DNA of 64,000 nucleotides from Candidatus Curtissbacteria bacterium (GCA_016183325.1 JACPEV010000003.1:18000-81999); one strand, 5' to 3'; numbered from the stretch's first letter, positions 9,049 through 58,681 are shown. Made by a program: numbers and translations. Notes: generated by a model not told the origin, from the sequence alone.

Positions 9049-9084
9049 TTATTTGCTTAAACCTATTTTCCCAATTATATCCTT
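9049..9084 (-). repeat. Orphan recoded copy of the rpsO 3' tail (KDIIGKIGLSK*)
   Basis: Translates to the S15 C-terminus with different codons, about 44 nt after the rpsO stop. Confidence 0.85.
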
Positions 9085-9127
9085 AAGGCCCGCAGTCGAG
9101 TCCTACTCGACGAGGACCGCAAAGATA

Positions 9128-9391
9128 TTATTTGGGCAAACCGATCTTGCCGATAATATCTTTATATCTTTCGGGAGCTTTTCTCATTAGATAGTGCAAG
9201 AGACGACGACGTTTATTGATTATAGAGAGTAAACCCCGTCTTGAATGATCATCGTGTTCGTGAGATTTAAGATGTTCAACTACATTGCCGACTCTTTGAG
9301 ATAAAAGGGCGATTTGAACCTCTGGTGAGCCAGTATCCCCCTCGTGCGTTTTAAATTTATCGATTACCTGTTTTTTAGAAGTTATTGCCAT
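9128..9391 (-). CDS. rpsO: 30S ribosomal protein S15
   Basis: DTGSPEVQIALL and DDHSRRGLL motifs; upstream of pnp. Confidence 0.98.
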   Translation of the reverse strand: MAITSKKQVIDKFKTHEGDTGSPEVQIALLSQRVGNVVEHLKSHEHDDHSRRGLLSIINKRRRLLHYLMRKAPERYKDIIGKIGLPK

Positions 9392-9446
9392 AAAGATAGT
9401 AACTAGCGACTAGTTTCTAGTGACTAGTCCAGAATAGTACTACAAT

Positions 9447-10475
9447 TTAGTTTTCTCTGTCAAAGGATTTTGATCCTCGATAAATTTTCGGAGGTTTGAG
9501 CCAATCTTTCTCAGAGGTTTTTTGGCGCTCAACTTCTTCAAGTGGTGTGATATCAAATGGAACTTGAGGCATTTTATCATCATTTTGAGAAATTGGAGTT
9601 TGCAGAGCATTTTGCAAATTTGATTGATTCTGGAAATTATATACTGACTGACTGGTTATTACTGGGTTGGGAGTTGGTGGGGTAAATTGTTGAGAAGATT
9701 GCTTTGGAATGCTTGCACTTTTTGATTCGCTGGCGAGACTGGCTCGGCCCGCCCCAAATTTAATTAACCAAGCAGCAATTTGAAAACTATTTTGGGTACA
9801 TTTGGCAGGAGAGAAACTTTCTGTAGATTGGGAAATTCCAGTGAATAAATTATAGGCGATGTCCTCATCTACTGGAAGTGCCAAGTCTTGAATAAACTGA
9901 GCAGTTACCTCACAAACACTTGCCGATTCTGGATTGGAGAAGTTTATTTGAGCAAATTTTTGGTTCACTTGTTCAACACTTACGTTGACTATGTAGGTAC
10001 TTGAGTCTAAATTTTGTTCACGAGTAATAACTTTTATCAGATCTTCCGATGATTTAAATCCTATTGCAAAAATTAAATCTGGTTTTGCGGGTACTTGTTC
10101 GAATGAAATTTTATCTTGGGAGAGGCCTTTTGAACCTGGGAATGGATGAATGACAATTTTTAATTTATTTTCTTCTAAAAAGTAAGTAACTTTATCAACA
10201 CTTTCTACTGCATCTTGAACGACTACAGCCAAGTTTGCGGTACCTTGTGATTGACCGATTTTGTCGACTCCATAAAGCAAAGTGCCATCTTTAACAGTCG
10301 GTGATTTGCCTATAATAGAAACATTTTTGCTTAATTTTTGACAAGAAAGGTAAAGCGCTAGTCCTGCGGCGAGTCCATCTATGCCAGTATCTTGAAAAAC
10401 GGCAATTAAAATATTCTCTGCTTTAGTGATTTTTTCAAGAGTTTTGTCTTTGGTAATTTGATCCATATCAACCAA
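9447..10475 (-). CDS. DHH-family (NrnA-like) phosphoesterase, apparently degenerate, with low-complexity tail
   Basis: IDGLAAGLAL, SASVCE and LFTGI..T.SF segments; position after infB; DHH motif not evident. Confidence 0.6.
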   Translation of the reverse strand: MVDMDQITKDKTLEKITKAENILIAVFQDTGIDGLAAGLALYLSCQKLSKNVSIIGKSPTVKDGTLLYGVDKIGQSQGTANLAVVVQDAVESVDKVTYFLEENKLKIVIHPFPGSKGLSQDKISFEQVPAKPDLIFAIGFKSSEDLIKVITREQNLDSSTYIVNVSVEQVNQKFAQINFSNPESASVCEVTAQFIQDLALPVDEDIAYNLFTGISQSTESFSPAKCTQNSFQIAAWLIKFGAGRASLASESKSASIPKQSSQQFTPPTPNPVITSQSVYNFQNQSNLQNALQTPISQNDDKMPQVPFDITPLEEVERQKTSEKDWLKPPKIYRGSKSFDREN

Positions 10476-10483
10476 TGAGGCAT

Positions 10484-10626
10484 GTCCGCAGGCAGACGTA
10501 CACGGCTCGTGCTAAGTCAGACTTGGCTATCGAGTTTGACTCGGTGCCGCGATTTTAACGGGTGAAACCCGTTCAGTCTTACCTTTCGCCTTCAGGTGTT
10601 ATTTGTACATGGCTTACGGAGCGGAC
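10484..10626 (-). ncRNA. Candidate 6S-like structured RNA
   Basis: Intergenic and GC-richer; ends pair (GTCCGC/GCGGAC, GTACA/TGTAC) into a long rod with internal bubble and hairpins. Confidence 0.45.
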
Positions 10627-10641
10627 TGGACAGGTAAATTT

Positions 10642-22226: not shown

Positions 22227-22287
22227 AGCTATATCATCCCCGAGGGCGTGAAGTTATTCGGCGTTTTTTTAAATATTCGAGGCTAAA

Positions 22288-22315
22288 TACTCTAATACTC
22301 TAGAGTATTAGAGTA
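22288..22315. repeat. 28-bp palindromic site P1 TACTCTAATAC-TCTAGA-GTATTAGAGTA
   Basis: Perfect palindrome; variants at 25004, 26326, 27299 and 28471. Confidence 0.9.
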
Positions 22316-22435
22316 ATAAAGATAATCATAAAATTACAAAAGCTAGATTTCTTCATTATCCCGACTCGCCAAGCTATTCCAAACCCGGTTCGGAATACGT
22401 TGGCGAGTAAGGTGAGTTCTGCAATTTCTGAAAGT

Positions 22436-22590
22436 TCAGGCGGGTACGGGAGCGTTTGATGCTATCAAACCTTCATCCTTAAGCTCTGTCCATAATTCTA
22501 CAGGAATCGGAAATTTCACCATTTGGAAATTTTCCTCCGCTTCTTTTGGAGTTCTGGCGCCGGGAATTATTGCCGCAACTGCAGAATGGA
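22436..22590 (-). pseudogene. Aldo/keto reductase, C-terminal fragment
   Basis: HSAVAAIIPGARTPKEAEENFQMVKFPIPVELWTELKDEGLI..PVPA*. Confidence 0.75.
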
Positions 22591-22819
22591 CTTCTCCGCT
22601 TCAGTGTCGGCAGGGCGAGGGCCAAAAAACGAAAGACCCCAGACAAAGAATACCGGGGTCGGCGCGGGTTGGCACGCTAGTTTCTCCGCGGCTTCGGCGG
22701 CTGCGTTTTCCTCAGCTCGGGGCCGAGGACGATGTCGGAGGGCTGTACGAGCCATTAGGCACCCCTTGAACAAAGGATGCCCCTATTATAGGCTTTTCGA
22801 ATGAACCGTCAAGAAGCTA

Positions 22820-23494
22820 CTAAGGGATTTGTTGTGATTTACGCCTCTGGCGTTGGTTTGTGCCGACGTAGTGCTCCACAGCGTTTCGATCCAAGAACCA
22901 TTGCAGCCCGCGCTTCACAGCCGGCAACTTACGGCGTCGTATCAGATAGGCGACGTTGGTGGGGTGACAGCCGAGGATTTCAGCTGCCTCCGCGATCGTA
23001 ACCGTCGCAGAGGGAGACGCGTCTGTTAGCTCCTTCAGCGAAGCGGCATCTACGACGTTATGGAGCTCCTCGACCGCTCCGTTCGTAAAGATGTTGACTC
23101 TTGTGCGTCGCCGATTGGCATTGCACTCAATGGAAAGAACTGCCTGAGCATGCTTAGGCTGGTAACCTGCCGCTATTCTATCTACCGTGTACTCGCGCGA
23201 TTGAGGGTCAAAGGTGCCGGCAATAAACTGTAGCCTGACAAGCCTATCATCAGGATGCACTTGTACGTGAACGGGCGGATCCCCTTCGTTGCCTAGCCTC
23301 CAAACGTAGCCCTTCCCAAAGGACGGATGCTCAAATGCTTCGGCGTCTGTCCCTAATACTGCGTTCACTGCCTCTACCAGAAACGGCTCTCCAGGCCGCC
23401 ACAAACAATGGAGTCCGTCGGTTTCACGCTCTGCAACGGTCGGGTCGGCCGTAACGGAGCTGCGGGTGCCTGCTATTCTCTCCTGGCTGCTCAC
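22820..23494 (-). CDS. Protein with C-terminal excisionase-like HTH (HTH_17), within a high-GC insert
   Basis: VTIAEAAEILGCHPTNVAYLIRRRKLPAVK..WF; GC visibly much higher than the flanks. Confidence 0.7.
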   Translation of the reverse strand: MSSQERIAGTRSSVTADPTVAERETDGLHCLWRPGEPFLVEAVNAVLGTDAEAFEHPSFGKGYVWRLGNEGDPPVHVQVHPDDRLVRLQFIAGTFDPQSREYTVDRIAAGYQPKHAQAVLSIECNANRRRTRVNIFTNGAVEELHNVVDAASLKELTDASPSATVTIAEAAEILGCHPTNVAYLIRRRKLPAVKRGLQWFLDRNAVEHYVGTNQRQRRKSQQIP

Positions 23495-23637
23495 AACTCG
23501 TATGATTATACCATGGCGCCGTGTTAGTAACGGTAACGAAAGGTGGGATGAAACGGCGGGGGGAGTGACACGCTCCTAAATTTCGTGTAACATGCACATG
23601 TAACGCGGATCAGGTAGTGTTTGGATCGGAGACCCTC

Positions 23638-23856
23638 ATGATCCCTCGGGTGACCATCGACGACATCGCCAGCGACACGAGGCTCTCCCGCAAGACCGTG
23701 TCCCTAGCTTTGCGTCACGACCAATCTGTTGCTGCTGCAACACTCCGTCGGGTCCTAGACGCGGCTGAGCGTCTCGGCTATACACGTAGCCGAGCCGAAA
23801 CGGCGCTCCTTGGGGTGGTGGTCCCTTACTTCAATCATCCGTTCTACTCCGAGTAA
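23638..23856 (+). pseudogene. LacI-family regulator, N-terminal fragment
   Basis: VTIDDIA...SRKTVSLAL...AERLGY...NHPFYSE, cut at the junction with the AKR gene. Confidence 0.8.
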
Positions 23857-24069
23857 TGTTTCGGCTTGTCCGAGCGCGTACTTTGGGGCGGTATCGAAAT
23901 AATTAACTCCCAATTTTAAAGCTGTTTTGACTTTACCAATGGTTGCGGCTTCATCCGGGTTCTCAAAATCCAAAAGGCCCGTTCCTAGGCCAAGGCGGGT
24001 AACAAAAACTCCGGTTTGACCAATTTCTACTTTTTGGGTGGGGACGAAAGAGGATTTAGGTCTTTCCAT
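23850..24069 (-). pseudogene. Aldo/keto reductase, N-terminal fragment
   Basis: IGQTGVFVTRLGLGT...GVNYFDTAPKYALGQAETLLG. Confidence 0.85.
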
Positions 24070-24175
24070 ACCGAGCAATTATACATCAGGAAGGTTTTTA
24101 AATTTTTAAAACGGTTAAGAATGCTTCTTAGGAGTTGTCCCTCTCACTTTAAAGCTTCGGAGGGCAAGCGACTTA

Positions 24176-24592
24176 TTACTTATCAATCCCGAATCGTTTG
24201 AATTTATTTGATTTATACTGCTTGTCAAAGCTAAAAACTGTATCCAGACCTTTTCCTTTTAGAATTGCCATATTAACACAGTCTGTGAAACGTGAGTTTT
24301 TGGACGTTTGTTTTTTGAAAAGCTCCAAAGCAGAACGCCTGAGAGCAGCATCAACTTCGATAATTTCCATTTGGCTTGCAAGAATTTCTTCTGCAAATTC
24401 TATCGCTTTATTTAAACCGACTTTTTGACTGATAATTGTCACTGCTTCTCCAAAAGCAGGGTCTGAAGTGAATAGTAATATAGCCTGTTCATCTACAAGA
24501 TTACTTAACTCTATTGCTTTTGAGTGGCTTGAATCTTCTATGGTGTTGAGTGCGACAAAAGCATCAGCGTCGACGAGAAGTTTTTTGATCAT
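24176..24592 (-). CDS. vapC: PIN-domain (VapC) toxin
   Basis: LLVDADAF, FTDCVN, VFSFDK. Confidence 0.9.
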   Translation of the reverse strand: MIKKLLVDADAFVALNTIEDSSHSKAIELSNLVDEQAILLFTSDPAFGEAVTIISQKVGLNKAIEFAEEILASQMEIIEVDAALRRSALELFKKQTSKNSRFTDCVNMAILKGKGLDTVFSFDKQYKSNKFKRFGIDK

Positions 24593-24905
24593 TTAGAAAA
24601 CGCTCCAGCCTCTTTTCTTCTGCTTTTGTTAATGTAGTGGTTCTCTTATCCTTACCGTACTTGGAAGATTTTTCTCCGTAAAGATAACTATATAAATTAG
24701 TAGAAAGATCCTTGGGGCCATGGCCTGCATTAGCAGCTAATCTCAAAAGGACGGCCCCAGGATTTTCCTTTTTTCGTTTTTCAATATTAAGACTTTTTTC
24801 CAGAATATTCCTGACAACTTCGGCTGTGGTTTTGCCATGCCTGCGGGCTTCGATTACGAGTTCCCTTTCAATTTCCGGAGTTAAATAAAGCTGTTTTCTG
24901 ATCAT
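24564..24905 (-). CDS. RHH-type antitoxin
   Basis: MIRKQLYL start; paralog of 1512-1766; TACAT repeats upstream. Confidence 0.8.
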   Translation of the reverse strand: MIRKQLYLTPEIERELVIEARRHGKTTAEVVRNILEKSLNIEKRKKENPGAVLLRLAANAGHGPKDLSTNLYSYLYGEKSSKYGKDKRTTTLTKAEEKRLERFLNDQKTSRRR

Positions 24906-25003
24906 GTATACATTATACATCATACATTTATTGTAGCGTGTTGTCAAATTTTGAGCACGGCTAAGAAGGCTTCTTGGGTAATTATTAAACATTCTAGGCT
25001 AAA

Positions 25004-25031
25004 TACTCTAATGATCTAGATTAATAGAGTG
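25004..25031. repeat. Palindromic site P2 TACTCTAATGA-TCTAGA-TTAATAGAGTG
   Basis: Overlaps the stop codon of the GNAT gene. Confidence 0.85.
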
Positions 25032-25566
25032 AAGACTCCATTAACCAAGAATCTACTTTTTTGCCTTCGTGCTGTTCGTGATTCTTGAGAATTTTGATTT
25101 TCTTGAAACCGGCTTTTTCGTAGGCTCGAATAGCTCGGGGATTATCGACATGAGGATCAGTGACAACTTTTTTGCCTTGTAGTTTTTTAAAAATGTGGTC
25201 GGTGATCATTTTAAGAACTTGTGGTCCGATACCCTTGTTCCAATATTCAACTTCTCCAATATACATATCCACCGCCCAGATGCCATTTGTATCATCCAAT
25301 TCGTAGTCTTTTGCTTTGATAACCGGATAATATTGAATGTACCCAATTTCTTTGTTGTTGTAGGAAAAAAAACATGGAACAATTTTGTTTTTGCCAAGTA
25401 CCCTTGGGCTATATTTTCTTTTGACCTTAGAAAGATATTGCGGGTTGGTACGACCGCCGTAAAATTCAAGAACTCTTTTGTCTGTTAACCATTTAGCAAT
25501 CTGCCTGTAATCGGATTCTTTATCCTCTATTTGCCGAATTTTTAACTGGCCTTTTTTGAGAAGCAT
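25021..25566 (-). CDS. GNAT acetyltransferase resembling AAC(6')-Ie/Im
   Basis: KWLTDKRVLEFYGGR, IGYIQYY, DMYIGE..YWNKGIG, DPHVDNPRAIRAYEKAGF. Confidence 0.75.
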   Translation of the reverse strand: MLLKKGQLKIRQIEDKESDYRQIAKWLTDKRVLEFYGGRTNPQYLSKVKRKYSPRVLGKNKIVPCFFSYNNKEIGYIQYYPVIKAKDYELDDTNGIWAVDMYIGEVEYWNKGIGPQVLKMITDHIFKKLQGKKVVTDPHVDNPRAIRAYEKAGFKKIKILKNHEQHEGKKVDSWLMESSLY

Positions 25567-25574
25567 ATAAACGG

Positions 25575-26267
25575 TTAGTTCAAATCGTATTTTCCTATAA
25601 TTTTTGTTGAGCTTGGGTGACATACTGAATTTGTGGTAATAAGACAAATTGTCCTGACCGATAACTTCCCAACTTCAACAACTTTTAACTTTTTAATTTT
25701 TTCTAAGAAAAGATTGCTTGGATGGGTAATATATCGGCAGACCGTAATGTTACCGAAAAAGATTTCATCCGATTCGTAACTTTTATTGTCTGGAACGCTT
25801 GCTTTGATTAAATTTTTTCTTAAATCTAGAACTAAATCTTTTAATGAATCATTTGAATAACATCTGATTCCAAGACTGGTTGGGAGTTCGAATAAACCTT
25901 TCACTGTGAATTCTAATTCTTTATGCTTCGGGATTATTTGATCAAAAGCTGTTTTTGCTTTTTCGACGTCCTCATCTGTAAATAACGGTGGATCACTAAT
26001 CGTTCGAATATTTTGAATAGTTAAATGAAGGCTTCGTGGTAGGTAAAAATATTGATTACTGTCTGCTTCTCTGAGAGGTTCAATAATTTTGGAAACAATT
26101 ATTTTTTGAAGATTTTCGGGAATAAAAATAACACTGGTTAAACCAATGCGGTTATCATTTGCATAATCTGCGACAGGTTCAACTATAGTTGTAGGTATTT
26201 TACCTTGTTTAAACTTTCCCTCAAGTTTTTCAAAAAGTTCAAATTGCTTCTTTTGATACGAAATCAT
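25575..26267 (-). CDS. 2H phosphoesterase / 2'-5' RNA ligase-like protein
   Basis: SLHLTIQ motif; second motif degenerate (NITV). Confidence 0.6.
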   Translation of the reverse strand: MISYQKKQFELFEKLEGKFKQGKIPTTIVEPVADYANDNRIGLTSVIFIPENLQKIIVSKIIEPLREADSNQYFYLPRSLHLTIQNIRTISDPPLFTDEDVEKAKTAFDQIIPKHKELEFTVKGLFELPTSLGIRCYSNDSLKDLVLDLRKNLIKASVPDNKSYESDEIFFGNITVCRYITHPSNLFLEKIKKLKVVEVGKLSVRTICLITTNSVCHPSSTKIIGKYDLN

Positions 26268-26325
26268 GAGGAAATTATATCTTAAGCATCGCCAGAAAGA
26301 ATTATTGGAGAATTCCTAAGCTAAA

Positions 26326-26353
26326 TACTCTAATACTCTAGAGTAATAGAGTA
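26326..26353. repeat. Palindromic site P3 TACTCTAATAC-TCTAGA-GTAATAGAGTA
   Basis: One mismatch to P1. Confidence 0.9.
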
Positions 26354-26371
26354 AAGAATCCAAGCACTTAA

Positions 26372-26947
26372 TTATGCGAACGAAATGGCAAGGACTATGA
26401 GCATACTTGCAGCAAAGCCGAGCGCTAGTTCTGCCAGAGAATGATGCTCGAGTTGCATGCGAGCCCAACTGATAACTCCCACTAGCGGAAGCGCAATAGC
26501 GTATTGTCGGCCATAGACCACAACAAGTCCGATAACTACGGCCGCAAATACGGCTACATGAAGGCTTGCCTTGATATACAAGTTGAGAATGGTAAAGGCG
26601 AACAAACCAGCTAGCATCATGTAAACAATAAGGCTGAGGTTTTGTGTGAATGACAGGGCATTCATTTCAATGATAAGTATCGGGGTTAGTACCGAAGCAA
26701 CCACAAACAAATAAATCCGCCTTTCCTTACGTTGCGTGACAAAGAGATCGGAGATTATGCCCATCTTCGACATTACAATCTGACATACAATGGGGATCAT
26801 AATAGTTGGAAAGACCAAAGCAATGATCGCAATAATAGCAGAGAAAAAGCTGAGACCTTCGTTATGGATTGCAACTAGTAGCCCACAGAAGCCAACAATT
26901 AATGGGTGAGAAATTAGTGATATTGCTAATGCAATGCGTCTTTGCAT
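26372..26947 (-). CDS. PAP2-like integral membrane protein
   Basis: K.SLH and WAR..L.HH..E motifs; multiple TM helices. Confidence 0.7.
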   Translation of the reverse strand: MQRRIALAISLISHPLIVGFCGLLVAIHNEGLSFFSAIIAIIALVFPTIMIPIVCQIVMSKMGIISDLFVTQRKERRIYLFVVASVLTPILIIEMNALSFTQNLSLIVYMMLAGLFAFTILNLYIKASLHVAVFAAVVIGLVVVYGRQYAIALPLVGVISWARMQLEHHSLAELALGFAASMLIVLAISFA

Positions 26948-26960
26948 TGGGTTTATTTCT

Positions 26961-27254
26961 TTAAATTTTTAATACAGCCAAAAACGCTTCCTGGGGAATA
27001 TCAACTTGGCCAAAGCGGCGCATTCTCTTTTTGCCTTTTTTCTGCTTCTCAAGTAGTTTCATTTTGCGGGTGACGTCGCCGCCGTAGAGTTTGGCGGTGA
27101 CGTCTTTGCGGTACGAGGCGATTGTTTCTCGGGCGATGATTTTGCCGCCCGGCAAACACCAAAGTCCAAAGTACGGCTCCTTGATTCTTTTGATCAGAAG
27201 AAATTTATCTTTATAAATAACCGGGGAAGCAACTATGTTTAAAATTTTGTCCAC
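26961..27254 (-). other. Chimeric ORF: NUDIX 5' head fused in frame to the lepA 3' tail
   Basis: ILNIVASP...LPGGK identical to the 21034-21519 protein; IIARET...FLAVLKI identical to the LepA C-terminus; junction in shared ATTTTGCC. Confidence 0.9.
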
Positions 27255-27298
27255 AAAGTATGGGAGAATTATATCCTACGGGCAATTTCGAATCTAAA

Positions 27299-27326
27299 TA
27301 CTCTAATGATCTAGATTATTAGAGTG
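27299..27326. repeat. Palindromic site P4 TACTCTAATGA-TCTAGA-TTATTAGAGTG
   Basis: Overlaps the stop codon of the CYTH gene. Confidence 0.85.
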
Positions 27327-27860
27327 AGATTTAATTGATTTTTTTAAAATTAAATCAAGATTTGAATCTTTGATGATTTTGTCTAAATAAGGTAGAAATT
27401 TTTGCTTGTAGAAATTGAATTCTTTTTCGGATTCTTTTGAATTTTTGGTCGTTTCAATCTCGAAAATTTTGCCGACAGTTAATATATTATCTAGATTGAA
27501 GATTGTATTGCCTTTTTTCCAAAGCTCGCGTTTTTTGTAAACAGTAGCTTTAATTCCTAAAACTTTTTTCAGATATGGTAAAAGTTTTTTATCTTTTACA
27601 GAAAGTAGGCTTACTTTTGCTTGGTTGCTTTTGTTTTCTTGAAAAGCTCTTCTTTTGTAATAAATTATGGTTTGTTTCCCTTTCTGTATTCTTAATTTAA
27701 GTCTTGGATGGATCTTGATATCCGATTGAGGTAAGTTGAAAAAGTAATCTTTTTGAAAAAAAGTTCCAACTTTCTTGGCATTTAACTCTTTTAGAATTTT
27801 CCTAATTGGAGAAAAATCGTTGCAAAAATACTTCAGCTCGAGATTAACTTTATTTTGCAT
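27303..27860 (-). CDS. CYTH-domain protein (CyaB-like)
   Basis: NLELKY, QKDYFF, RLKLR, KKRELW, FEIE. Confidence 0.8.
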   Translation of the reverse strand: MQNKVNLELKYFCNDFSPIRKILKELNAKKVGTFFQKDYFFNLPQSDIKIHPRLKLRIQKGKQTIIYYKRRAFQENKSNQAKVSLLSVKDKKLLPYLKKVLGIKATVYKKRELWKKGNTIFNLDNILTVGKIFEIETTKNSKESEKEFNFYKQKFLPYLDKIIKDSNLDLILKKSIKSHSNNLDH

Positions 27861-28421
27861 CTAGAAAGTCAGATTTTGGTACATTAATATTTGATCGATA
27901 AATTTGTCCCGGTGGACTATTCCTTTTGGAAGCACACCATATTTTTTAAACCCGAAGTTTTTATACATTTCAATCGCTATATTATTGTTTGCATAGACAA
28001 CTAGCGTGACAATTTTTAGATTGAAGAGATTTTTCCCTGCTTCTTCTAAAATTTTTTCTGTTAAAAGTTTCCCGATGCCTTGATTTCTAAATTGTTTGGC
28101 CACCGAAATGCCAAAATCACCAACATGTGTTTCAACTCTTTCTCTAAGTGTTATGTTTGCGATCCCAATTAAGGCCTTTTGGGAGTAGGCCAAGATGTGA
28201 ATATCTTCATTTTTATTCATTTTATTAAGAACGTTATCTAAATATTTTTTTTCTTCGTCAACTGTTAGTTGTTGTCCTTGGAAACTGATATACGTACGCT
28301 CTTTTGAAAGCGTGTTGATGTAATTTAAAAGATCTTTGAGATCATTCGCTTCGGGGTAACGTAAAACAATTGGGAGACCGTTTTTAATTTTGCCTTCGAA
28401 GATAATTTGTCCTGGTTGCAT
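27861..28421 (-). CDS. GNAT acetyltransferase
   Basis: HVGDFGISV..FRNQGIG, NNIAIEMYKNFGF. Confidence 0.88.
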   Translation of the reverse strand: MQPGQIIFEGKIKNGLPIVLRYPEANDLKDLLNYINTLSKERTYISFQGQQLTVDEEKKYLDNVLNKMNKNEDIHILAYSQKALIGIANITLRERVETHVGDFGISVAKQFRNQGIGKLLTEKILEEAGKNLFNLKIVTLVVYANNNIAIEMYKNFGFKKYGVLPKGIVHRDKFIDQILMYQNLTF

Positions 28422-28470
28422 AAATAAGATTATATCCTAAGCTGTCGCTTTAGAAGATTTCTAAGCTTAA

Positions 28471-49024: not shown

Positions 49025-49243
49025 TCAAATTTTGTAGAGCAAAATGCCGTTTTGGGATTTTTCTGGTTTTTTGGTGGGGAAAGGGATGGTTTTGTCGGTG
49101 TTGACGATGATGCGAGCTCCACGCTTGGCGTTTTGATAGACGAATTTTTCAAATCTGGGCATGGTTTTGGCGCGGCCGTAGACGAAAATGACATCGGCTT
49201 CTTTGAGATCGGCTTGCCAGAGGTCTTTGCGAATCACTATCAC
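49025..49243 (-). pseudogene. Orphan duplicate of the 3' third of the SAM methyltransferase
   Basis: 49068-49186 identical to 50041-50159; flanks diverged. Confidence 0.85.
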
Positions 49244-49280
49244 ACCTCCGAGGTGTGAAGAGCTTTCACCTATACGATAA

Positions 49281-49964
49281 TTATTTATCCTTGTTCCAAA
49301 GTCCTAAGAAACCTGTGGCCAAAAAGAGACCGGCTAAGGTATCTTTACATTGCAGCTCCAGTGTTGGGATATCTTCAATTGCATACCAATCCTTATCTCC
49401 AACTTTAATGTCTTCATCTTCTCCCAATGACTGTTGATACTTTAGTTCCGTGGCATCAACCTCTGCTAGAAAAAAAGGGGATTTGGTGTGAGAATTAGAA
49501 GTGCTGAAATAAACTTCTCCAATTTGCTGAATTGATATTGGTTCAAGGCCCGTTTCCTCTTTAACTTCGCGAAGTGCTGCTTCTTTCGGGTCTTCATGTT
49601 CCCAAAACCGGACTTGACCCTGAGGGATATTTTTTACATAAACATTGCCCTGTTGTCCATTTTCATCTTTGAGGAGAACTCTACGTTCCTCAGGAAGTAA
49701 GAATTCAATTTTTTCCCCTCTCCTTCTAAAAACTACTACAAAGACTCCTCGACCATCTGCATGAAGATCAATCTTGTCAAAAATTCTACCTGTCTCATTG
49801 TTGATAACTGCTATATGACTAATCGTGGCCCAGCCAGGATCATAGACTTCTGACCAGTCGGGAATTTGTTCACCTGAAGTGGTTTGAACAACCCAATTTG
49901 GTCTTGGAATTCTCTGGCGTTCTTCTGGGGTTAGCCCGGAAAATGGAACGACTCTATCTGGCAT
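49281..49964 (-). CDS. NUDIX hydrolase (ADP-ribose pyrophosphatase-like)
   Basis: EDPKEAALREVKEETGL. Confidence 0.8.
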   Translation of the reverse strand: MPDRVVPFSGLTPEERQRIPRPNWVVQTTSGEQIPDWSEVYDPGWATISHIAVINNETGRIFDKIDLHADGRGVFVVVFRRRGEKIEFLLPEERRVLLKDENGQQGNVYVKNIPQGQVRFWEHEDPKEAALREVKEETGLEPISIQQIGEVYFSTSNSHTKSPFFLAEVDATELKYQQSLGEDEDIKVGDKDWYAIEDIPTLELQCKDTLAGLFLATGFLGLWNKDK

Positions 49965-50766: not shown

Positions 50767-51069
50767 TTATTGTTCGAGCGTTAGCGAGAACTATTAAATA
50801 ATAATTCTTTCTTCTGCCTACTAAAATCTTTTAATTGATGTTCTCGATCTCTAGCCTGAATTATTTCTGTAAATTCTTCTACGTAACAGAGCCTTTTGAA
50901 ACCATGTCTGGATGTAAATTTAGACCCTTTACCAATTTTATGCTGTTCCATTCTTTTTTCTAAATCCCAGGTAATTCCGGTGTAATAAAAACCGTCTAAA
51001 CATTCAATAATGTAAACATACCACTTCCATTGTTTATTTAATGAACTTCTCACTTCGTTCGAAGAATAA
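50767..51069 (-). mobile_element. Candidate autonomous GIY-YIG palindromic element
   Basis: GIY-YIG ORF bounded by the same left and right ends as the MITE-like copies. Confidence 0.55.
50781..51053 (-). CDS. GIY-YIG nuclease (YhbQ/UPF0213-like)
   Basis: WYVYIIEC.DG.YYTGIT.DLEKR..QH, ARDREHQLK. Confidence 0.92.
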   Translation of the reverse strand: MRSSLNKQWKWYVYIIECLDGFYYTGITWDLEKRMEQHKIGKGSKFTSRHGFKRLCYVEEFTEIIQARDREHQLKDFSRQKKELLFNSSR

Positions 51070-51118: not shown

Positions 51119-51153
51119 TCAGCCCTCGCTTCGCTCGCCTGATGTAACAGCAT

Positions 51154-54100
51154 TTACTGTATTTTTGCTAAAGAAAAAGGACAAATGCTGTTATAGGCGC
51201 AGTAAACACAAGCCGGTTCGCGGCCGAAATATTTGGGGTTGGCGACAAAAGAATTATTTTTGGTATCACGGCGGATTTTGTCGGCAGTTTCCAAAATCAA
51301 CTCTTCGGTTTTTTCTAAATCTTTTTGAGTGGGAGTGTGTGCTCCTTCGATGCCGGTTTCCAAGAAGTTGAGGACGACCTTTTCGGGAACGATCCTGTGG
51401 CGCTTAAAGTAGTAAAGCGCGTAGATAGCAAGCTGAATTGATTCTTTAGCCTGAGAATCGGCTTTGTCTTGATCGATGTTTTCGGAAGATTTGTAATCGA
51501 TGATGGTGATTTTCCCGCCAGGTTTTACATCTACCCTATCAAAACGACCGGTAATCGTGACACCTTTTAGCGCGAAATCGAACCTTGCTTCGATAAGGCT
51601 GGGCAGATCTTTTGATTTTGATTCTCGTTGCCAAAAATTTTGGAGGGCAAGTTTGCCTTGAGATTTTCTTTTTTCTTCATGTTCGATGGTTAAAAATCCT
51701 TCACTATCCCAAGCGTTTTCGAAAATTTCCAAAAGCTGGGGAAGGGTTAAAATCCTGCCGCTTTTTTTGGCCCGGAAAAATCCGGCAACGGCGCTGTGGA
51801 GAGCGGCACCGTATACGATAGCGTGATGCCTGAGAGTAGGAATTCTAAGGATATGAATATAGCGGTATTTGTAGGCACACGTTAGATAATCGTCGATTGA
51901 ACCTTGGGTAAGTTTTAAAACATCGACATCGAAAAGTAAAGTTTGGGTTGTGCGGGTAGGTGTTGGTGCAAATTTTTCGATTTTTTCCAGTGGTGAGAGT
52001 CTGGCAATCTCCGCGTCTGATTTGATCTTATCTAATGCTTCCAGCACAAACGGGGATATTTTTTTGACTCTGGCTCCACCAATATCGCGAGACCAGGAAA
52101 AGTAAAGCAAATCTTTAGCACGAGTCATGCCGACATAGAAAAGGCGCCTTTCCTCTTGTTGGTGCCAATCACCGATGGGCAGAGTTTCTTTGATCAAGAC
52201 TTCGGGAACCTCGATGGCATCACCTCGCGCGCGTGTTGGGAAACGATCGGCAACTAAATTGACCAAAAAAACGACCGAAAATTCCAAACCTTTGGCGCCA
52301 TGGACAGTCATTACATTGACGGCATCCACTTCTGGATCAAACTGGACTGTGGCAGGGTCATCACCAGCCCCCCGAATCGCTTCGAGATAATCGACGAATT
52401 GGGTGACTGATTCGACCTTAGCTACGTCAACAAATTCTTTAATTTTATCGAAGAATTTTGCAATATTCTGGATTTTAAGCTGATTTTCAACGCCGCCTTG
52501 CCTTTCTAACTTTTTGAGATAACCGGTTGTTTTCAAAAAGCCGTAGGTAACTTTGCCTACATTTTCGCGCCTGGAGAGTTTAATTGACTCATCAAGATCT
52601 AACAAAAGTTTTTCGATGATGGCTTTGGACTCTTCTGATAGGTCTAAATCTGATATTCCACTGTCATTCTGGCCCTTCGGCAGTGAGCTGCTCAGGACAG
52701 TCGAACTGCTTGTCCAGAATCCGCTTTTTTTGATTCTGGAGTCGTCGCTTCGCTCCTCCCCAGAATGACGGTGTTGGGGTGTAAGTCTATCTAGATTTTT
52801 TAGAACATAATAAAGTGAGCGATTTTTTCTTTTGGCGTATGAAGCGAGTTTGATGGCATCGGCAGGCGGCATTTTGTAAACATCAGATGTACTGAGATTA
52901 AAAAGGTTAAGACTATCTTCAAAATTGGAAATGGCTGTTAAGAAAGAGATTAGGAGATTTACTTCTTCCTGCTGGTATAGGCCTGATGAACCGACAAATT
53001 TATGGGGAATACCCTTCATATTAAGAGCGCGCAAGAAATGGTCGGCTTGGGCGTTGGCGCGAACAAGAATGGCGAAATCGCGATATGAATAACCATCTCT
53101 GCCACCTCCGAGGTGTGAGGAACTTTCACCTCGGAGGTATTTGCTTCTTTTAGCCATTAACTTTTCAATTTCTGCAGCCACTAGATCAGCTTCTTCTGAA
53201 ATTGTATCGGCGAAAATTTCCTGAGGGGATAAGCCATGCCTTATTCCAAGCTCACCCCGGGGGTGTAACCAGACAGCCTTTAATTTTTTATCTATTTTGT
53301 TTTGGACTTCCAGCCGGTCGGGGTCATTGTGGCGGATGAGACGATAAGCACTATTTAAAATGGATTGGGTTGAACGGTAGTTTTGGTTTAGAACCACTTG
53401 GTGGGCTTTTGGATATGTTTTTTTAAACTCTAAAATGTTTGAAATTGCAGCGCCGCGGAATTTGTAGATTGAATTATGAACAACAATATTGTTTGCAATA
53501 AAATTATGCGTTTTTTCAATTTCAAGATCATAGACTGTTAGTGTTTTTTCTTCTTCTGTGATTTCAATTATTTCATCATAATAAACCCGATTATTAACAA
53601 CTATCGGTACACGATGGCCAAGAACTAGATTACTTGCTGGCATTATCAGGGCTGGCTTGCTCTGAAAGCTTGCAAAACCTAAAGCGAATTTTGCCTCTAG
53701 AAAACCACCAGTAAAATCAGTTATTTTTTGTGCGAGTTTGCCCAGATTTAACAAATCGCTGCTTTGAATTCTTAATCTTAGGCCTTTTTTTGCTTTCTGG
53801 AGTTGATAGCCCGCATCTTGCAATAGTTTAATTATCTTAGGATTAGTGGTCTCTAAGTGCAGTGTGTGGGCTATCAATGGGCTTTTAAGAATTTCCTTGG
53901 ATTTGGAGTGATAATTTCTTGAACAGATTTCCAAATTAATTTTTATTCTTCGACTTGATCCTCGAGTGACTGCATTTAAGGTATAGTGAGAAGAATTGAG
54001 GTCTATATGTAAGTCTTGAGCCAGTTTAGCAGCGTTAGCATAACTATCAATATCTTTGTATAACTTCATGAGGGAATCTCCTTTTATTTCAATTCCAATC

Positions 54101-55386
54101 CGTTCTTGAAAAACCGTCGGTGGAATCCCGTATTTGAGAGCCCAAAACATTTCGTAATATCTTGCTTCAGAATCTGTTCTAAATGCTCTTATGCCTATTA
54201 TTTTATCAGCAGATCTTTCCAGCCTAAGTCTCGTAGCAAGATCATTAGTAACTCCAATTCTCCAACCTAAGTTCTGTCTATACATCAAATAAACATAGTG
54301 ATACTGGTTTTGGGAGACTTTGGATGGGACATAACAGAAAACTTTATGATTGTCGGTTAATGTTAGCTTACATCCACTTTTTGTTTTAACCGTTAATAAG
54401 CGTGCAGTTTTTCTGTTCTTGAAGACCTTTGTTATCTTTGAGATGCCTAAGTGACCTTTACCAACCGCAGTTAGAACTTGGTCGCTAATTTTGAGCTTTT
54501 CAATCTTTCTCTTGCCATTGGAAGTAGTAATGAGAGTGCCAGGAGGCAAGCATTGATCATCGTCGCCAACAACACAGATGTTTTTGTGACTGGCGGCGAG
54601 CAATTTGACCAGTTCGTTTTGGGCATAATTGGTATCTTGGTATTCATCGACTAAGATGTATTTGAATTGATCTTGATATTTTTTGAGAATTTTGGGGCGC
54701 TTTTGGAAAAGTTCGATGGTTTTGACAACTTGATCACCAAAATCCAAAAAACCGGCTTCGTCTTTAAATTTCTCGTATTGCTGATAAGAACTTGCTAATT
54801 CTTGATATTTCTTGGCTTCGATCCTTCGACTTCGCTCAGGACCTTCGGTTTTCTCTTCTTTTCTGGCGTCAGTTGCCAGTCGTTTAGAGTATAGCGAGAA
54901 TTCCTCCGGATTGATGTTTTCGTCCTTAAGTCTGGAGAAAAAAGAAAGAATTGCAGAGATGAATTTTGTAGGATTAGAAAGTGGAAGATAGTACTCTAGA
55001 TTAAACCTGAAAAGGTTTTGTTGGAAAAAGAGAACTTGTTGAGGGCGAGAAAGAACTTTGAAATCTGGAGAAAGACCAATTTCCAGAACATTGTCGCGCA
55101 AAATTCTGTCACCAAAAGCATGAAAGGTAGAAATCCAGGTGTCGATAAAACCGTAAGGGACAAGTATATCCACGCGTTCTTCCATTTCGGCGGCAGCTTT
55201 GTCGGTAAAGGTCAGCGCCAAAATTTCCGAAGGTTTGGCGAGGCGTTTTTCAATAATGTAGGCAATACGTCTTGCGATAACGGCGGTTTTGCCAGTGCCA
55301 GCACCGGCGATTATTAAAAGCGGCCCTTCGGTTGTGGTAACCGCCTGTTTTTGCTCAAGGTTGAGATCTTTGAGAATATCTGACAT
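51154..55386 (-). CDS. UvrD/AdnB-like helicase with C-terminal PD-(D/E)XK nuclease, intein-containing
   Basis: AGAGTGKT, DEYQD, HGAKGLEF, GRFDRVD..IIDYKS, four Fe-S-type Cys residues. Confidence 0.92.
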   Translation of the reverse strand: MSDILKDLNLEQKQAVTTTEGPLLIIAGAGTGKTAVIARRIAYIIEKRLAKPSEILALTFTDKAAAEMEERVDILVPYGFIDTWISTFHAFGDRILRDNVLEIGLSPDFKVLSRPQQVLFFQQNLFRFNLEYYLPLSNPTKFISAILSFFSRLKDENINPEEFSLYSKRLATDARKEEKTEGPERSRRIEAKKYQELASSYQQYEKFKDEAGFLDFGDQVVKTIELFQKRPKILKKYQDQFKYILVDEYQDTNYAQNELVKLLAASHKNICVVGDDDQCLPPGTLITTSNGKRKIEKLKISDQVLTAVGKGHLGISKITKVFKNRKTARLLTVKTKSGCKLTLTDNHKVFCYVPSKVSQNQYHYVYLMYRQNLGWRIGVTNDLATRLRLERSADKIIGIRAFRTDSEARYYEMFWALKYGIPPTVFQERIGIEIKGDSLMKLYKDIDSYANAAKLAQDLHIDLNSSHYTLNAVTRGSSRRIKINLEICSRNYHSKSKEILKSPLIAHTLHLETTNPKIIKLLQDAGYQLQKAKKGLRLRIQSSDLLNLGKLAQKITDFTGGFLEAKFALGFASFQSKPALIMPASNLVLGHRVPIVVNNRVYYDEIIEITEEEKTLTVYDLEIEKTHNFIANNIVVHNSIYKFRGAAISNILEFKKTYPKAHQVVLNQNYRSTQSILNSAYRLIRHNDPDRLEVQNKIDKKLKAVWLHPRGELGIRHGLSPQEIFADTISEEADLVAAEIEKLMAKRSKYLRGESSSHLGGGRDGYSYRDFAILVRANAQADHFLRALNMKGIPHKFVGSSGLYQQEEVNLLISFLTAISNFEDSLNLFNLSTSDVYKMPPADAIKLASYAKRKNRSLYYVLKNLDRLTPQHRHSGEERSDDSRIKKSGFWTSSSTVLSSSLPKGQNDSGISDLDLSEESKAIIEKLLLDLDESIKLSRRENVGKVTYGFLKTTGYLKKLERQGGVENQLKIQNIAKFFDKIKEFVDVAKVESVTQFVDYLEAIRGAGDDPATVQFDPEVDAVNVMTVHGAKGLEFSVVFLVNLVADRFPTRARGDAIEVPEVLIKETLPIGDWHQQEERRLFYVGMTRAKDLLYFSWSRDIGGARVKKISPFVLEALDKIKSDAEIARLSPLEKIEKFAPTPTRTTQTLLFDVDVLKLTQGSIDDYLTCAYKYRYIHILRIPTLRHHAIVYGAALHSAVAGFFRAKKSGRILTLPQLLEIFENAWDSEGFLTIEHEEKRKSQGKLALQNFWQRESKSKDLPSLIEARFDFALKGVTITGRFDRVDVKPGGKITIIDYKSSENIDQDKADSQAKESIQLAIYALYYFKRHRIVPEKVVLNFLETGIEGAHTPTQKDLEKTEELILETADKIRRDTKNNSFVANPKYFGREPACVYCAYNSICPFSLAKIQ
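53473..54552 (-). mobile_element. Intein (360 aa) in helicase motif III
   Basis: VVGDDDQ|CLPPGT ... LTDNH ... VYDLEIEKTHNFIANNIVVHN|SIYKFRGA. Confidence 0.93.
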
Positions 55387-56159: not shown

Positions 56160-56966
56160 TTAATTTGGTCTTTGCCAATCGATGCCAAAATGATGTTTAA
56201 GATCTAATTCTTTCCAGTAATCAAATTCAATAGAGGCATTGAAAGGATCTTGCAACAATTGCGGGGAGAATAATTTTCCCAAAATATCTTCAAGGTCGAT
56301 TCTTTTTGGGAAGCTTAACTGATCAACATGTTTGTTGGTAACTCTTCTTTCGAGAGTGATAATTTGTCCATCATTTACTCTAACTTCGGAACCATCCCAA
56401 TTATTAATAATAATTGAACCCTTTGCATCTGGAAACATTGAAACAAGACTTTTCTCTTTAAGGGCAGAACTCTTAAAATTTAATGAATTGAACTCTAGGT
56501 TCTGATAGTAGATATCAAGAATATTACTTTCATACTGAACGCGTATTCCAAAATGACTCGAAGATAATAGGAATACGTTTATGTGCTCTGGTGATCTGCC
56601 GGTTAATAACCTCTCCCCATATTTATCGATTGAGAACCTAACTGGATATTCATCGAAATATTCGATTGATAATTTTGATGATAAATCGTCTATATCGAAA
56701 TCTTTGTTATGTGGAGTCTTGTAGTAATTTCGTGCATAGCATACTTGGTCGTAAAAAAAACTCTGTCCAACATAAAACAGATTTTCAGGTACAATTTTTA
56801 ACCCGGTCCAATATATCTGCGATTCTAATGAATTCACATAATCAATAAAGGCTATTTGAATATCTTTGGGTACTTTGCCATTTTCTAAGCCAGACAGTGG
56901 GAACATTCTCGAATCATGGAATGAGGTGTTAGGAGGAAGAAAATCGGAAAATTGTTCGTCGTTCAT
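56160..56966 (-). CDS. Hypothetical protein
   Basis: 268-aa ORF, AT-rich, no recognised motif. Confidence 0.7.
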   Translation of the reverse strand: MNDEQFSDFLPPNTSFHDSRMFPLSGLENGKVPKDIQIAFIDYVNSLESQIYWTGLKIVPENLFYVGQSFFYDQVCYARNYYKTPHNKDFDIDDLSSKLSIEYFDEYPVRFSIDKYGERLLTGRSPEHINVFLLSSSHFGIRVQYESNILDIYYQNLEFNSLNFKSSALKEKSLVSMFPDAKGSIIINNWDGSEVRVNDGQIITLERRVTNKHVDQLSFPKRIDLEDILGKLFSPQLLQDPFNASIEFDYWKELDLKHHFGIDWQRPN

Positions 56967-57004
56967 TGATATGTGAAGCCAAATTATATCACTATTGATA
57001 GAAT

Positions 57005-57064
57005 TTACTTGCTTTTGAGGGATTTTATGGCTTTTGCTTCGATAGTTTATTTCAGAGATTTTAT
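57005..57064 (-). repeat. Orphan recoded copies of the rmuC 3' tail (IEAKAIKSLKSK* and IKSLK*)
   Basis: RmuC ends IEAKTTKSLKSK*; the copies lie beyond mazEF. Confidence 0.8.
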
Positions 57065-57426
57065 TCTAGCGGTTCGAGGCCAAGCACGATTTTTAGAGCT
57101 TCTTCGACTTCGTAAAGCTTTTCTTTGGTAAGAGTACTAAGTTTTTTGGCAAGGCGGGATTTGTCGATTGCTCTAATTTGGTTTGGTAGGGCAACTGAAT
57201 TTTTATCCAAGAAGCTATTTTCTTTTTCCAGCAATATTCTCTCTGGGCCTAGTATTTCGGGAACTTGTGATGAGATAGGAATTATAATGACAAGAGGTGA
57301 GATCTTATTTATTTCGTTTGCGGAAATAACAATGACGGGTCTTTTCTTGGCAACTTCCCAACCTTTTCCTGGAATTAAATCAGCGACCCAGATTTCTCCG
57401 CGTTTTGGTTTTAATACTCTGGCCAT
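57061..57426 (-). CDS. mazF: MazF/PemK toxin
   Basis: KRGEIWVADL.P..G.E..K.RPVIVIS, QIRAIDKSRL. Confidence 0.93.
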   Translation of the reverse strand: MARVLKPKRGEIWVADLIPGKGWEVAKKRPVIVISANEINKISPLVIIIPISSQVPEILGPERILLEKENSFLDKNSVALPNQIRAIDKSRLAKKLSTLTKEKLYEVEEALKIVLGLEPLE

Positions 57427-57644
57427 CCATCTAGTTCAGTTGCCTTCCAAGTCTCTGCTTCTTTTTTGTCAAATTCGCGATTTGCCTTTAAACTTCTAAT
57501 CAAATCTTTTTTAAGATTCTTTTTGCGATGCAGTTTTTCTTCGAGCGCCTTTGCAATAAATTTGCTGCGAGACCTTGAAGGGATAGTTTTGCGAAGATCT
57601 CGGGCTAAATTTGATGGGAGTGTGATATTTATTCTTTGTTGCAT
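57411..57644 (-). CDS. RHH antitoxin (NdoAI-like)
   Basis: RINITLP..RSKFI; overlaps mazF. Confidence 0.85.
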   Translation of the reverse strand: MQQRINITLPSNLARDLRKTIPSRSRSKFIAKALEEKLHRKKNLKKDLIRSLKANREFDKKEAETWKATELDGWPEY

Positions 57645-57685
57645 TACACACTAATTATACACACTCTATAATTCTGTGTCAACAA

Positions 57686-58681
57686 TTATTTTGATTTCAG
57701 GGACTTTGTGGTTTTGGCTTCTATATTCTGTACGGTTGATATTCGAGAGGATAAGCGGGAAAAGCGGGAGTTTACGTCGTCAGTTGAGGCGGCGGCGTTT
57801 TTGATGTGTTTGGTAAGAACTGAGAGCGATCCACCGAATTTTTCGGTTTCGTCGCCGATCTCTCTTAAGGCGGCCAGTATCTGGCCGGCGCTTTTTTCGA
57901 TTTTTGAGCCTTCAAGAGACATAATTATGGCGCGAAGATAGGCGTAGAGTGTGTTAGGTGAAACCGGACGGACACGTTTTCGGTAGGCATATTCATCCAG
58001 TTGGGGGCTATTGGTCAGAATTTCGTAGTAGATTGGTTCCGAGGGAATATACATGAGGGCAAAGTCGAGTGTGCCTTCTTGAGGACGGATGTATTTAGTG
58101 GAGATTGCATCGATGTGTTTTTTGATGTCGGCAATAAATGACTTTCGATAAAGATCCCGATCCTTTTCGCCTTCGGCTTTGGCCATTTTTCTGAAATTTT
58201 CCATGGGAAATTTGGCATCAATCGGGATTATCCCCTGTTCAAGTTTTAAGGCGGCATCGACAATTTCGCCGGATTTAAAAGCATATTGCAGATGGAAATT
58301 TTGCTTAGGCAAAGTTTGGCCAAGTAAATCTTTTAAGATGGACTCGCCTATTTGACCGCGAAGCTTTGGCGAGCGCAAGAATTCTTGCAAATCTTTCATA
58401 CTTCTGCCAAGTTCGGTCATTTCACCGACGGATTTTGAAACTCCGGAGATAACCTGGGCGGCACGATCCAGTCTTTCGTTGATGGCGCGTGTCTGGCGGA
58501 CCATCGAATCGGTCGTCTTATCCATTGATCCGCGCATATCGGAAACTAACTGGGTTAAAAGTTTTGTGGTTTCGTCAGAGTTTTTATTTTCGGTTAATTT
58601 TTTAATTTGCAAATAGAGAATGGCGAAGGCGGCGATGACTATCAGGGTGCCGACGACAAATAATGCTGTTTGAGAATCCAT
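57686..58681 (-). CDS. rmuC: DNA recombination protein RmuC
   Basis: RGQIGE..L, IPIDAKFP, DFALMYIPSE, VSPNTL. Confidence 0.93.
   Translation of the reverse strand: MDSQTALFVVGTLIVIAAFAILYLQIKKLTENKNSDETTKLLTQLVSDMRGSMDKTTDSMVRQTRAINERLDRAAQVISGVSKSVGEMTELGRSMKDLQEFLRSPKLRGQIGESILKDLLGQTLPKQNFHLQYAFKSGEIVDAALKLEQGIIPIDAKFPMENFRKMAKAEGEKDRDLYRKSFIADIKKHIDAISTKYIRPQEGTLDFALMYIPSEPIYYEILTNSPQLDEYAYRKRVRPVSPNTLYAYLRAIIMSLEGSKIEKSAGQILAALREIGDETEKFGGSLSVLTKHIKNAAASTDDVNSRFSRLSSRISTVQNIEAKTTKSLKSK

Follow-up and report, generated by a model that had tools for sequence, protein, structure and literature searches.

A 64,000-nucleotide (nt) stretch of DNA from a tiny groundwater bacterium, Candidatus Curtissbacteria (hereafter the window; G000:C4:18000-81999), carries five genes, rpsO, lepA, a methyltransferase (MTase) gene, a helicase-nuclease gene and rmuC, each followed on the same minus strand by a second copy of its own C-terminal codons and stop. 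Such copies are former working gene ends that were displaced by ends from related species. The displacement, its polarity, the fixed join, the covariation of a complementary arm with the tail it accompanies, and the specificity for the matching gene are directly observed, and the pattern points to an undescribed, integrase-free insertion of DNA into essential genes. The best overall explanation, to which we assign a probability of roughly 0.6, comprises two routes: insertion of self-folding units (class A, rpsO and the helicase gene, where gene and copy are separated by a hairpin only) and recombination of a tail together with cargo (class B, lepA, the MTase gene and rmuC, where cargo lies between gene and copy).

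A preliminary description of the window had placed all five copies correctly and overlooked the arm, which is self-complementary to the unit, and the stacked arrays. Of the 32 family genomes, the source genome (G000; 1.21 Mb, 95% complete) is alone in its genus; because the set contains no congener, the ancestral tail at the five window loci was judged from relatives. The names rpsO, lepA, rmuC, nusG and rplK were assigned by family searches; secA, ftsZ, uvrA, glmS, leuS and gyrB are presumed names, given by recognition of the sequences.

Self-folding units behind rpsO and the helicase gene

Class A units measure 55-100 nt and consist, in order, of the tail, the stop codon, an arm of 9-12 nt (reverse-complementary to the nucleotides with which that tail begins) and a core, i.e. 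a hairpin resembling repetitive extragenic palindromic (REP) sequences; the displaced old tail, or scar, lies beyond. They enter at a fixed position and are stacked into arrays. The terms arm and core, the hairpin families F1-F5 and the GIY-YIG clade labels were coined in this analysis. The window contains the following class A features.

9128..9391, minus strand: rpsO (ribosomal protein S15; Pfam PF00312), ending in the current, incoming tail of 36 nt (9128-9163)
9119..9130, minus strand: rpsO arm, which overlaps the stop, is reverse-complementary to nt 1-10 of the tail and is followed by a conserved GC
9085..9118, minus strand: rpsO core hairpin, family F1, with a GC...TA/TT foot
9049..9084, minus strand: displaced old rpsO tail, KDIIGKIGLSK and stop
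9028..9048, minus strand: what is left of an earlier unit, namely the arm belonging to the old rpsO tail and the beginning of another F1 core
51154..55386, minus strand: UvrD-type helicase-nuclease gene, whose last 42 nt are the current tail
51145..51156, minus strand: helicase arm, complementary to the start of the helicase tail
51119..51144, minus strand: helicase core hairpin, family F3; an identical core stands at the identical site in the relative L256
51080..51118, minus strand: displaced old helicase tail, YNSICPFSLAKI and stop
50781..51053, minus strand: hairpin-flanked gene for a small GIY-YIG nuclease (UPF0213-like), a candidate enzyme class with a putative role here
8993..9021, minus strand: promoter-like site upstream of pnp, a consensus match that is not above chance

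The rpsO copy (36 nt) differs from the gene by seven synonymous and one non-synonymous codon changes, and the helicase copy (39 nt) by nine and none. Together with the 39-nt rmuC copy (six and two), these are the three scars of 36-39 nt noted at the outset, and the hairpin spacers of 43 nt (rpsO) and 35 nt (helicase) likewise fall within the 35-45 nt first given. The accompanying claim that the peptide is kept while the codons change holds for rpsO, lepA, rmuC and the helicase gene, where changes are mostly synonymous, but fails for the MTase gene because 16 non-synonymous changes stand against 8 synonymous ones.

The rpsO unit (9085-9163, 79 nt) folds into two abutting hairpins that cover nearly all of it, at -17.1 kcal/mol compared with -7.0 ± 2.3 for shuffled sequences; when permuted, it forms a single long stem. 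In 11 of 14 cases, circularised own units fold lower than chimeras, the dumbbell and two-hairpin folds being computed. The arm follows its own tail: of the informative positions in 19 rpsO and nusG units, 40 agree with that tail, 6 with the next one and 1 with neither. An arm of at least 7/9 was found at 6 of the 14 short-scar genes versus 185 of 3636 controls, and an F1-F3 motif at 9/14 short-spacer joins versus 13/1220 matched windows, with motifs picked after seeing the cases and the secA join set by hand. All rpsO units (14/14) start at K-[D/E] behind GC-hairpin-TA or -TT, although the inner hairpins vary, and the bases at the join (marked by a slash) depend on the gene: TA/AAR, GG/GT, GA/TA and GGG/GTC.

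These observations bear on the route first proposed for all five genes, an out-of-register or homology-facilitated recombination with a long anchor in the gene body, a loose join just before the resident stop, and hairpins as mere passengers. Its loose join does not apply to the hairpin-only cases, where the join is fixed to the nucleotide across genera, lies at the hairpin foot and has no visible upstream donor anchor. The fixed join in 14/14 rpsO units and the arm that follows its own tail (40 to 6) make this route unlikely as an account of every case, and unlikely for the mini-units in particular, even though it is probably right for the cargo loci discussed below.

A quite different possibility is that tail, hairpin and tail form an old, vertically kept RNA element serving mRNA stability or read-through, with both copies under selection. 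Consistent with this, rpsO tails and scars differ by 83 synonymous and only 6 non-synonymous codons, and arms are kept without a scar in some genomes (L021, L126). Nevertheless, the spacers keep no frame (their lengths modulo 3 are 0, 1 and 2), no terminator pattern or Rfam match was found, outer copies decay (L003, lepA scar 3), and sisters differ by whole units, so that we consider this reading barely credible. Use of the scar by read-through or frameshifting was rejected on the same spacer lengths. Recoding tuned for folding was also discarded, given that inner tail codons are not better folded in array genomes (mean z 0.03) than in others (-0.40; p=0.36, DNA folding). The helicase-nuclease (51154-55386) contains an intein at about residues 279-639.

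Recurrence in the genome and order of events in relatives

We scanned the source genome for stop-anchored tail matches (score of at least 40, at most 5 kb downstream of 1305 open reading frames (ORFs)), a threshold below which shorter scars fall. Matches followed 29/1305 ORFs (some tandem paralogues included), compared with 0/1305 on the opposite strand and 0/2610 in the downstream DNA of other genes, more than chance would give. Upstream matches (10/1305) were, by eye, mostly paralogues or reciprocal hits. Once 8 of 43 matches in long open frames were removed, 35 scars remained behind 30 genes, a few of them paralogue fragments, and 27 of the 35 measured 30-63 nt. Non-gene tail copies lay within 6 kb downstream of their own gene in 26 cases, upstream in 1 and on the opposite strand in 1; 25 distant hits were judged by eye to be paralogue, insertion-sequence or repeat ends plus one further ftsZ scar. 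The targets are some 30 unrelated genes, in line with the earlier remark on the five. Scars are stacked behind secA (4), lepA (3), ftsZ (3), nusG (2) and uvrA (2).

At secA (G000 C25:33209), the C-terminal variant encoded by the nearest of the four scars is longer than that of the working gene, and the arm and the new tail pair at 12/12 positions. At another locus (G000 C16:26474), two tandem hairpin-plus-F2 units stand at the start codon rather than the stop.

Among relatives (128 loci in total, a single detector, G000 excluded), scars were found at 24/128 loci versus 0/128 reversed controls. Those with short spacers occurred at rpsO (10/30), nusG (2/25), rmuC (1/21), lepA (3/28) and the helicase gene (3/24), with five more behind cargo. 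Outside the family, rpsO scars were found at 0/58 loci. A metagenome scan for close sisters was dominated by distant rpsO, family-level sequences making up 4/80 loci. A Peribacteria record (L218) has the nusG geometry as well, and a GTDB pattern scan for the nusG join gave true nusG arrays at 3/34 loci, the remainder being chance. Record L221 carries a nusG array of this family's type, and its Gammaproteobacteria label looks doubtful.

Sister pairs give the order of events. What L032 has beyond its sister L037 is a single new unit of 69 nt: the working tail, arm and core of L037 are the second unit of L032, with a G-to-E change. The working tails of the pair differ at 6/11 synonymous codons versus 6/49 in the gene body, with no change at all over the 33 nt upstream. 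This pair bears out the proposal that a new tail came from a diverged relative and the old one was left behind. Likewise, L010 and L038 differ at 9/11 tail codons versus 7/48 in the body, with 1 difference in the 35 nt upstream. Neither pair shows the homologous donor anchor on one side that characterises homology-facilitated illegitimate recombination (HFIR). The working helicase unit of L255 is the second unit of L256, with different neighbours, and the nusG tails of L121 and L126, from two genera, are identical at 11/11 codons, yet 21/46 codons differ upstream.

Synonymous divergence between tail and scar within a genome (0.66) is similar to that between genomes (0.60, p=0.14), and rare amino-acid variants are shared within one genome. 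From these two findings, congeneric donors suffice as a source of tails. Selection for extra tail divergence was rejected on the same comparison.

A hairpin element could instead have inserted with a long target duplication (tail and arm), later allele swaps making the working copy differ. A locus on C23 with two identical tails followed by a diverged third fits this idea, as do the abundance of F2 repeats (129 loose matches) and the 3-100 bp patches made by SPDIR (short-patch double illegitimate recombination), according to the accessible part of 10.1101/2023.11.22.568220. Yet in L032 the new tail, the arm that matches it and a core unlike the previous one were gained jointly, with the old unit left whole, the closest pair of working tail and first scar in 12 rpsO arrays still differs by 7 nt, and a unit common to L255 and L256 is followed by different neighbours in the two. 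We therefore hold target duplication to be improbable.

That the copies are assembly chimeras of co-occurring strains we regard as negligible. The genome is indeed a metagenome bin, but Logan contigs of two runs cover 50130-52761 (helicase tail and scar) and 53109-58757 (rmuC, mazEF and scar) with no differences and even depth, although these runs may be the window's own source. At the MTase gene the contigs stop at the 119-nt repeat, which is thus unbridged, and the depth of the cargo contig resembles that of its flanks. The geometry also recurs in independent genomes (24/128 loci), and arms covary with tails.

Behind rpsO in L038, the scar K-D-I-I-G runs into a GTPase-like N-terminus, I-G-L-V-G-L-P-N-V-G-K, presumably that of ychF; the sequence suggests a rearrangement through look-alike sequence.

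Cargo loci behind lepA, the MTase gene and rmuC

The class B loci of the window contain the following features.

29244..31115, minus strand: lepA (Pfam), in which an in-frame hairpin of 30 nt, lacking in most relatives, is inserted (~29430-29459) immediately ahead of the duplicated stretch
27303..29192, no single strand: lepA cargo block 1, a 173-residue ORF without known function (plus strand), a GNAT gene and a CYTH-domain gene
27139..27247, minus strand: NUDIX 5' fragment, near-identical to 21404-21512, meeting the lepA scar at an 11-nt microhomology (27139-27149)
26961..27146, minus strand: lepA scar 1, fused to the NUDIX fragment
25021..26947, minus strand: lepA cargo block 2, a pair of ORFs that match no family plus a GNAT gene resembling AAC(6') below the NCBIfam cut-offs
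24944..24982, minus strand: lepA scar 2, a 12-residue peptide
24176..24992, minus strand: lepA cargo block 3, a probable antitoxin gene (no Pfam hit) and a PIN toxin gene
24098..24172, minus strand: F4-like hairpin (24128-24172) and decayed lepA scar 3 (24098-24127)
22286..28485, minus strand: palindrome F5, five copies (22286, 25002, 26324, 27297, 28469), in the lepA island and nowhere else in the genome
49998..50600, minus strand: MTase gene, with an in-frame hairpin insertion (~50240-50300)
49281..49964, minus strand: NUDIX cargo gene
49025..49279, minus strand: old MTase 3' end, in which a stretch of 119 identical nt (49068-49186) has diverged sequence on either side
57686..58681, minus strand: rmuC
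57061..57644, minus strand: rmuC cargo, a probable antitoxin gene (no Pfam hit) and a MazF/PemK toxin gene, a pair also found behind rmuC in genus g17
57047..57064, minus strand: ambiguous 18 nt
57005..57043, minus strand: displaced old rmuC tail

Two of the three lepA scars (24944-24982, 24098-24127) and the extension of the MTase scar to ~49279 were absent from the first inventory. The 18 nt at 57047-57064, described there as a mini copy of the rmuC tail, may equally be a degenerate F2 hairpin repeat or a decayed extension of the scar.

In lepA scar 1 (186 nt), 126 nt are identical to the gene and the last 60 nt carry 10 synonymous and no non-synonymous changes. The MTase copy as first delimited (219 nt) has 119 identical nt; the old end includes an in-frame hairpin peptide, GESSSHLGGV, also present in a relative's working gene. 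MTase scars were seen at 1/21 relatives' loci with the gene, viewed 0.3-1 kb downstream. In relatives, rmuC scars range from 39 to ~120 nt, and one mazEF join stands on differing resident tails in genus g17.

In class B, the tail with its cargo would enter or spread by homologous recombination on one side and by a homeologous or microhomology join in the gene end on the other, a reading of the joins based on the identical cores (126 and 119 nt) and the 11-nt join. Since ComEC, DprA and RecA are encoded in the genome and no MutS exceeded the cut-off, homologous recombination plus a short join, as first proposed, is the simplest reading here. The variable joins, such as the GC-rich 11-nt microhomology between the NUDIX fragment and lepA, support the loose resolution before the resident stop in these cargo cases. 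A variable microhomology join, as in HFIR, was seen at lepA scar 1 and in the rmuC series and not at the rpsO and nusG mini-units, and scarless patches exist. The competence and recombination genes agree with recombination of transforming DNA, a route that is probably right for the cargo class; against this stands that HFIR, in the accessible part of PMC3240628, usually deletes about as much resident DNA as it inserts rather than duplicating it.

Several further features of these loci were recorded. The F5 palindromes lie at cargo-gene boundaries and resemble cassette spacers, and the lepA island includes a GC-rich, foreign-looking block with an HTH_17 gene (22523-23800). The GNAT gene at 25021-25647 is closest to AAC(6')-Ie aminoglycoside acetyltransferases (141 bits, cut-off 340). 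In lepA and the MTase gene, distinct hairpin repeats occur in frame at one same codon in different genomes (L187, L188, L255, L256). Elsewhere in the window, an IS1595-family transposase gene lies between nusA and dnaJ (14734-15522).

Possible mechanism, candidate enzymes and known systems

For class A (rpsO, the helicase gene, nusG, rplK and others), we propose that a whole unit is inserted at the hairpin foot, before the matching position of the resident gene. With insertion directly in front of the resident position, new units stack beside the gene and old ones decay outward, the anatomy and the polarity both being observed. The fold computed for the unit as single-stranded DNA (ssDNA) has two hairpins, or the shape of a dumbbell when the DNA is circular, and brings the ends together. 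It may arrive as transforming ssDNA, folding fixing the join, and may be targeted by tail homology and filtered by selection for an intact gene. As for cutting out or resolving the unit, small single-domain GIY-YIG hairpin nucleases acting with host ligase and replication are candidates on circumstantial grounds; this is a guess, to which we give somewhat less than even odds. HUH transposases, Xer-like proteins and an enzyme-free loop-in at the fork are alternatives for this step. The most elaborate version, an integrase-free, integron-like system in which gene-tail cassettes of 55-100 nt circulate between species as ssDNA dumbbells, are excised by clade-specific GIY-YIG enzymes and are guided by arm and tail to one fixed position in the matching essential gene, is tentative and rather doubtful.

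The small GIY-YIG genes, 2-17 per genome, were surveyed in 75 genes from 73 fetched stretches of about 186 loci, where kin are not independent. An F2 hairpin end precedes 10/14 genes of one clade versus 3/61 others, F4 accompanies 6/6 of another versus 7/69, and a CGTC-flanked clade is present (10/10). A displaced tRNA-end copy lies behind 8/14 GIY-YIG genes that have an upstream tRNA end. The window GIY-YIG protein resembles the UPF0213 structures 1zg2 and 1ywl. A related GIY-YIG enzyme, SsnA, cuts transforming ssDNA beside hairpins (accessible parts of PMC11893778); in 12 of the 14 supplements of that paper there is one Saccharimonas row, and ssnA is not in it. At four loci (G000 C20:79022, C20:29464, C11:11957, C23:12007), GIY-YIG genes lie between a hairpin-split tRNA 5' half and a complete tRNA, a layout that mirrors the tail pattern, with the head replaced instead.

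The genome has 6 Y1 transposase ORFs and 15 GIY-YIG hits. Palindromes flanking the six Y1 ORFs differ, by eye, from the join hairpins, so that the arrangement of a REPtron with its RAYT, a Y1 HUH transposase flanked by the join hairpins, was not found. One relative, G013, has arrays at three loci, 0 Y1 hits and a completeness of 86%. Y1 transposases have a median of 2 in array genomes versus 1 in others (p=0.063; kin not independent, groups by eye).

The scars might also be attachment-site remnants of integrase islands, or cassettes moved in trans by an integron- or Xer-like recombinase. The attC core motif is RYYYAAC ... GTTRRRY, and the pairing of an arm with the beginning of its own tail resembles attC. 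The genome encodes two Xer-like (PF00589, C22 and C26) and two serine recombinases (PF00239, C11 and C16), all of them outside the window, as the preliminary description had indicated for integrases. However, some 30 unrelated targets stand against these four recombinases, the integron integrase (TIGR02249) gave no hit over the cut-off of 265 in the 95% complete genome (best 112 and 65 bits), and the attC core motifs occur at 1/14 short-spacer joins (3/14 start with GTT; the xer join was misplaced by the detector). One of the two Xer-like genes (G000 C22:10917) itself bears a tail-arm-core-scar unit and is thus a target. The anatomy equals that of icd/icd' (PMC6379469) and of stacked ssrA islands (PMC3146451), in so far as the accessible parts of these papers describe them; we nevertheless judge this origin to be very improbable.

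Several points weigh against a fold- and nuclease-guided two-route account. A single enzyme is hard to reconcile with cores and join bases that differ between genes. GIY-YIG copies are only weakly higher in genomes with arrays (median 5 vs 3, p=0.037; kin not independent, groups by eye). The SRM consensus was found at 0/14 joins, 10 times in the genome and beside 0 of six GIY-YIG genes tested, three of them CGTC-flanked, and no circular or excised unit was found among 15 joints shown of 58 in contigs. Selection for arm pairing could act on the RNA. Hairpin adjacency, tested with a k-mer repeat mask, gave 2/7 short scars, 2/28 long ones and 135/1500 in the background, the test being too insensitive, and the hairpin at the join is missing from most cargo scars. 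The L121/L126 tail identity (p=0.0012) is not significant by itself across 351 pairs. Since scarless short patches from diverged donors occur, as in the sisters L260 and L261, whose diverged patch spans the helicase tail and the MTase start, a precise join could be mimicked by ordinary short-patch recombination. Finally, a phylum sample (90/110 matched genomes fetched) held no scars (0/199 loci; nusG 0/80, rplK 0/85, rplA 0/34), so on these data the earlier suggestion of a general host mechanism is too wide.

Comparison with known systems draws on the accessible parts of the papers cited. In E. coli, e14 supplies a new 3' end to icd and leaves the resident end as a downstream duplicate, the icd' (icdC) relic (PMC6379469); here there is neither phage nor integrase, the inserts are 55-100 nt units or a few cargo genes with arm and REP-like core, and one genome has ~30 unrelated targets. 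Tandem ssrA islands of Dehalococcoides are also stacked behind an essential gene, each bounded by a 3'-end copy and some lacking an integration module (PMC3146451), but they use one RNA target and a dedicated serine integrase, whereas here many protein genes bear synonymously diverged copies and a dedicated enzyme was not found. As in integrons, the unit end pairs with its own start (40 vs 6) and the newest unit stands first (L032/L037). Ordered arrays with the newest cassette first, GNAT, NUDIX and toxin-antitoxin cargo and a plausible recruitment of ssDNA are shared as well (PMC12614218; 10.1101/2022.09.11.507474); in contrast to integrons, no IntI was found, attC motifs occur at 1/14 joins, and the unit starts with the host gene's tail and targets only that gene. 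As neither an integrase nor attC motifs beyond that one join were found, we place the system with none of these three.

Ssn with its NTS/SRM hairpins offers a small single-domain GIY-YIG enzyme bracketed by clade-specific hairpins in a competent genome (PMC11893778), but the join hairpins are not SRMs (0/14) and go with other GIY-YIG clades, and the role described there for Ssn is to restrict integration rather than to insert gene ends. HFIR and SPDIR (PMC3240628; 10.1101/2023.11.22.568220) resemble the present case as integrase-free uptake of ssDNA via microhomology and fit the cargo class, although they yield deletions or variable microindels rather than insertions that recur at a fixed position and are bounded by hairpins. 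CGTC- and GTAG-tagged REPs (PMC3733652) are likewise short palindromes after and inside genes, the CGTC repeats being unlinked to transposase genes, yet the accessible text of that paper reports no carriage of gene tails and does not contain the word 'duplication'. Within the literature searched, most subscription papers lying outside it, hairpin-delimited replacement tails are not described.

Scars of this kind resemble assembly errors or attachment sites and call for caution; arm covariation and the polarity of sister pairs are the evidence that was tested here. Ultra-small bacteria have much strain-specific cargo and few integrases, and a route by which DNA enters behind dozens of essential genes and repairs them would account for where toxin-antitoxin, GNAT and NUDIX genes land, and would assign a role to the many hairpin repeats and small GIY-YIG genes. 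Protein C-termini would be swappable between species, e.g. the longer secA scar variant. If the system is fold- or nuclease-guided, the scars would store alternative C-termini, and cargo could land at any conserved gene end; if a hairpin-reading nuclease is responsible, it may offer a compact, possibly programmable tool for ssDNA insertion.

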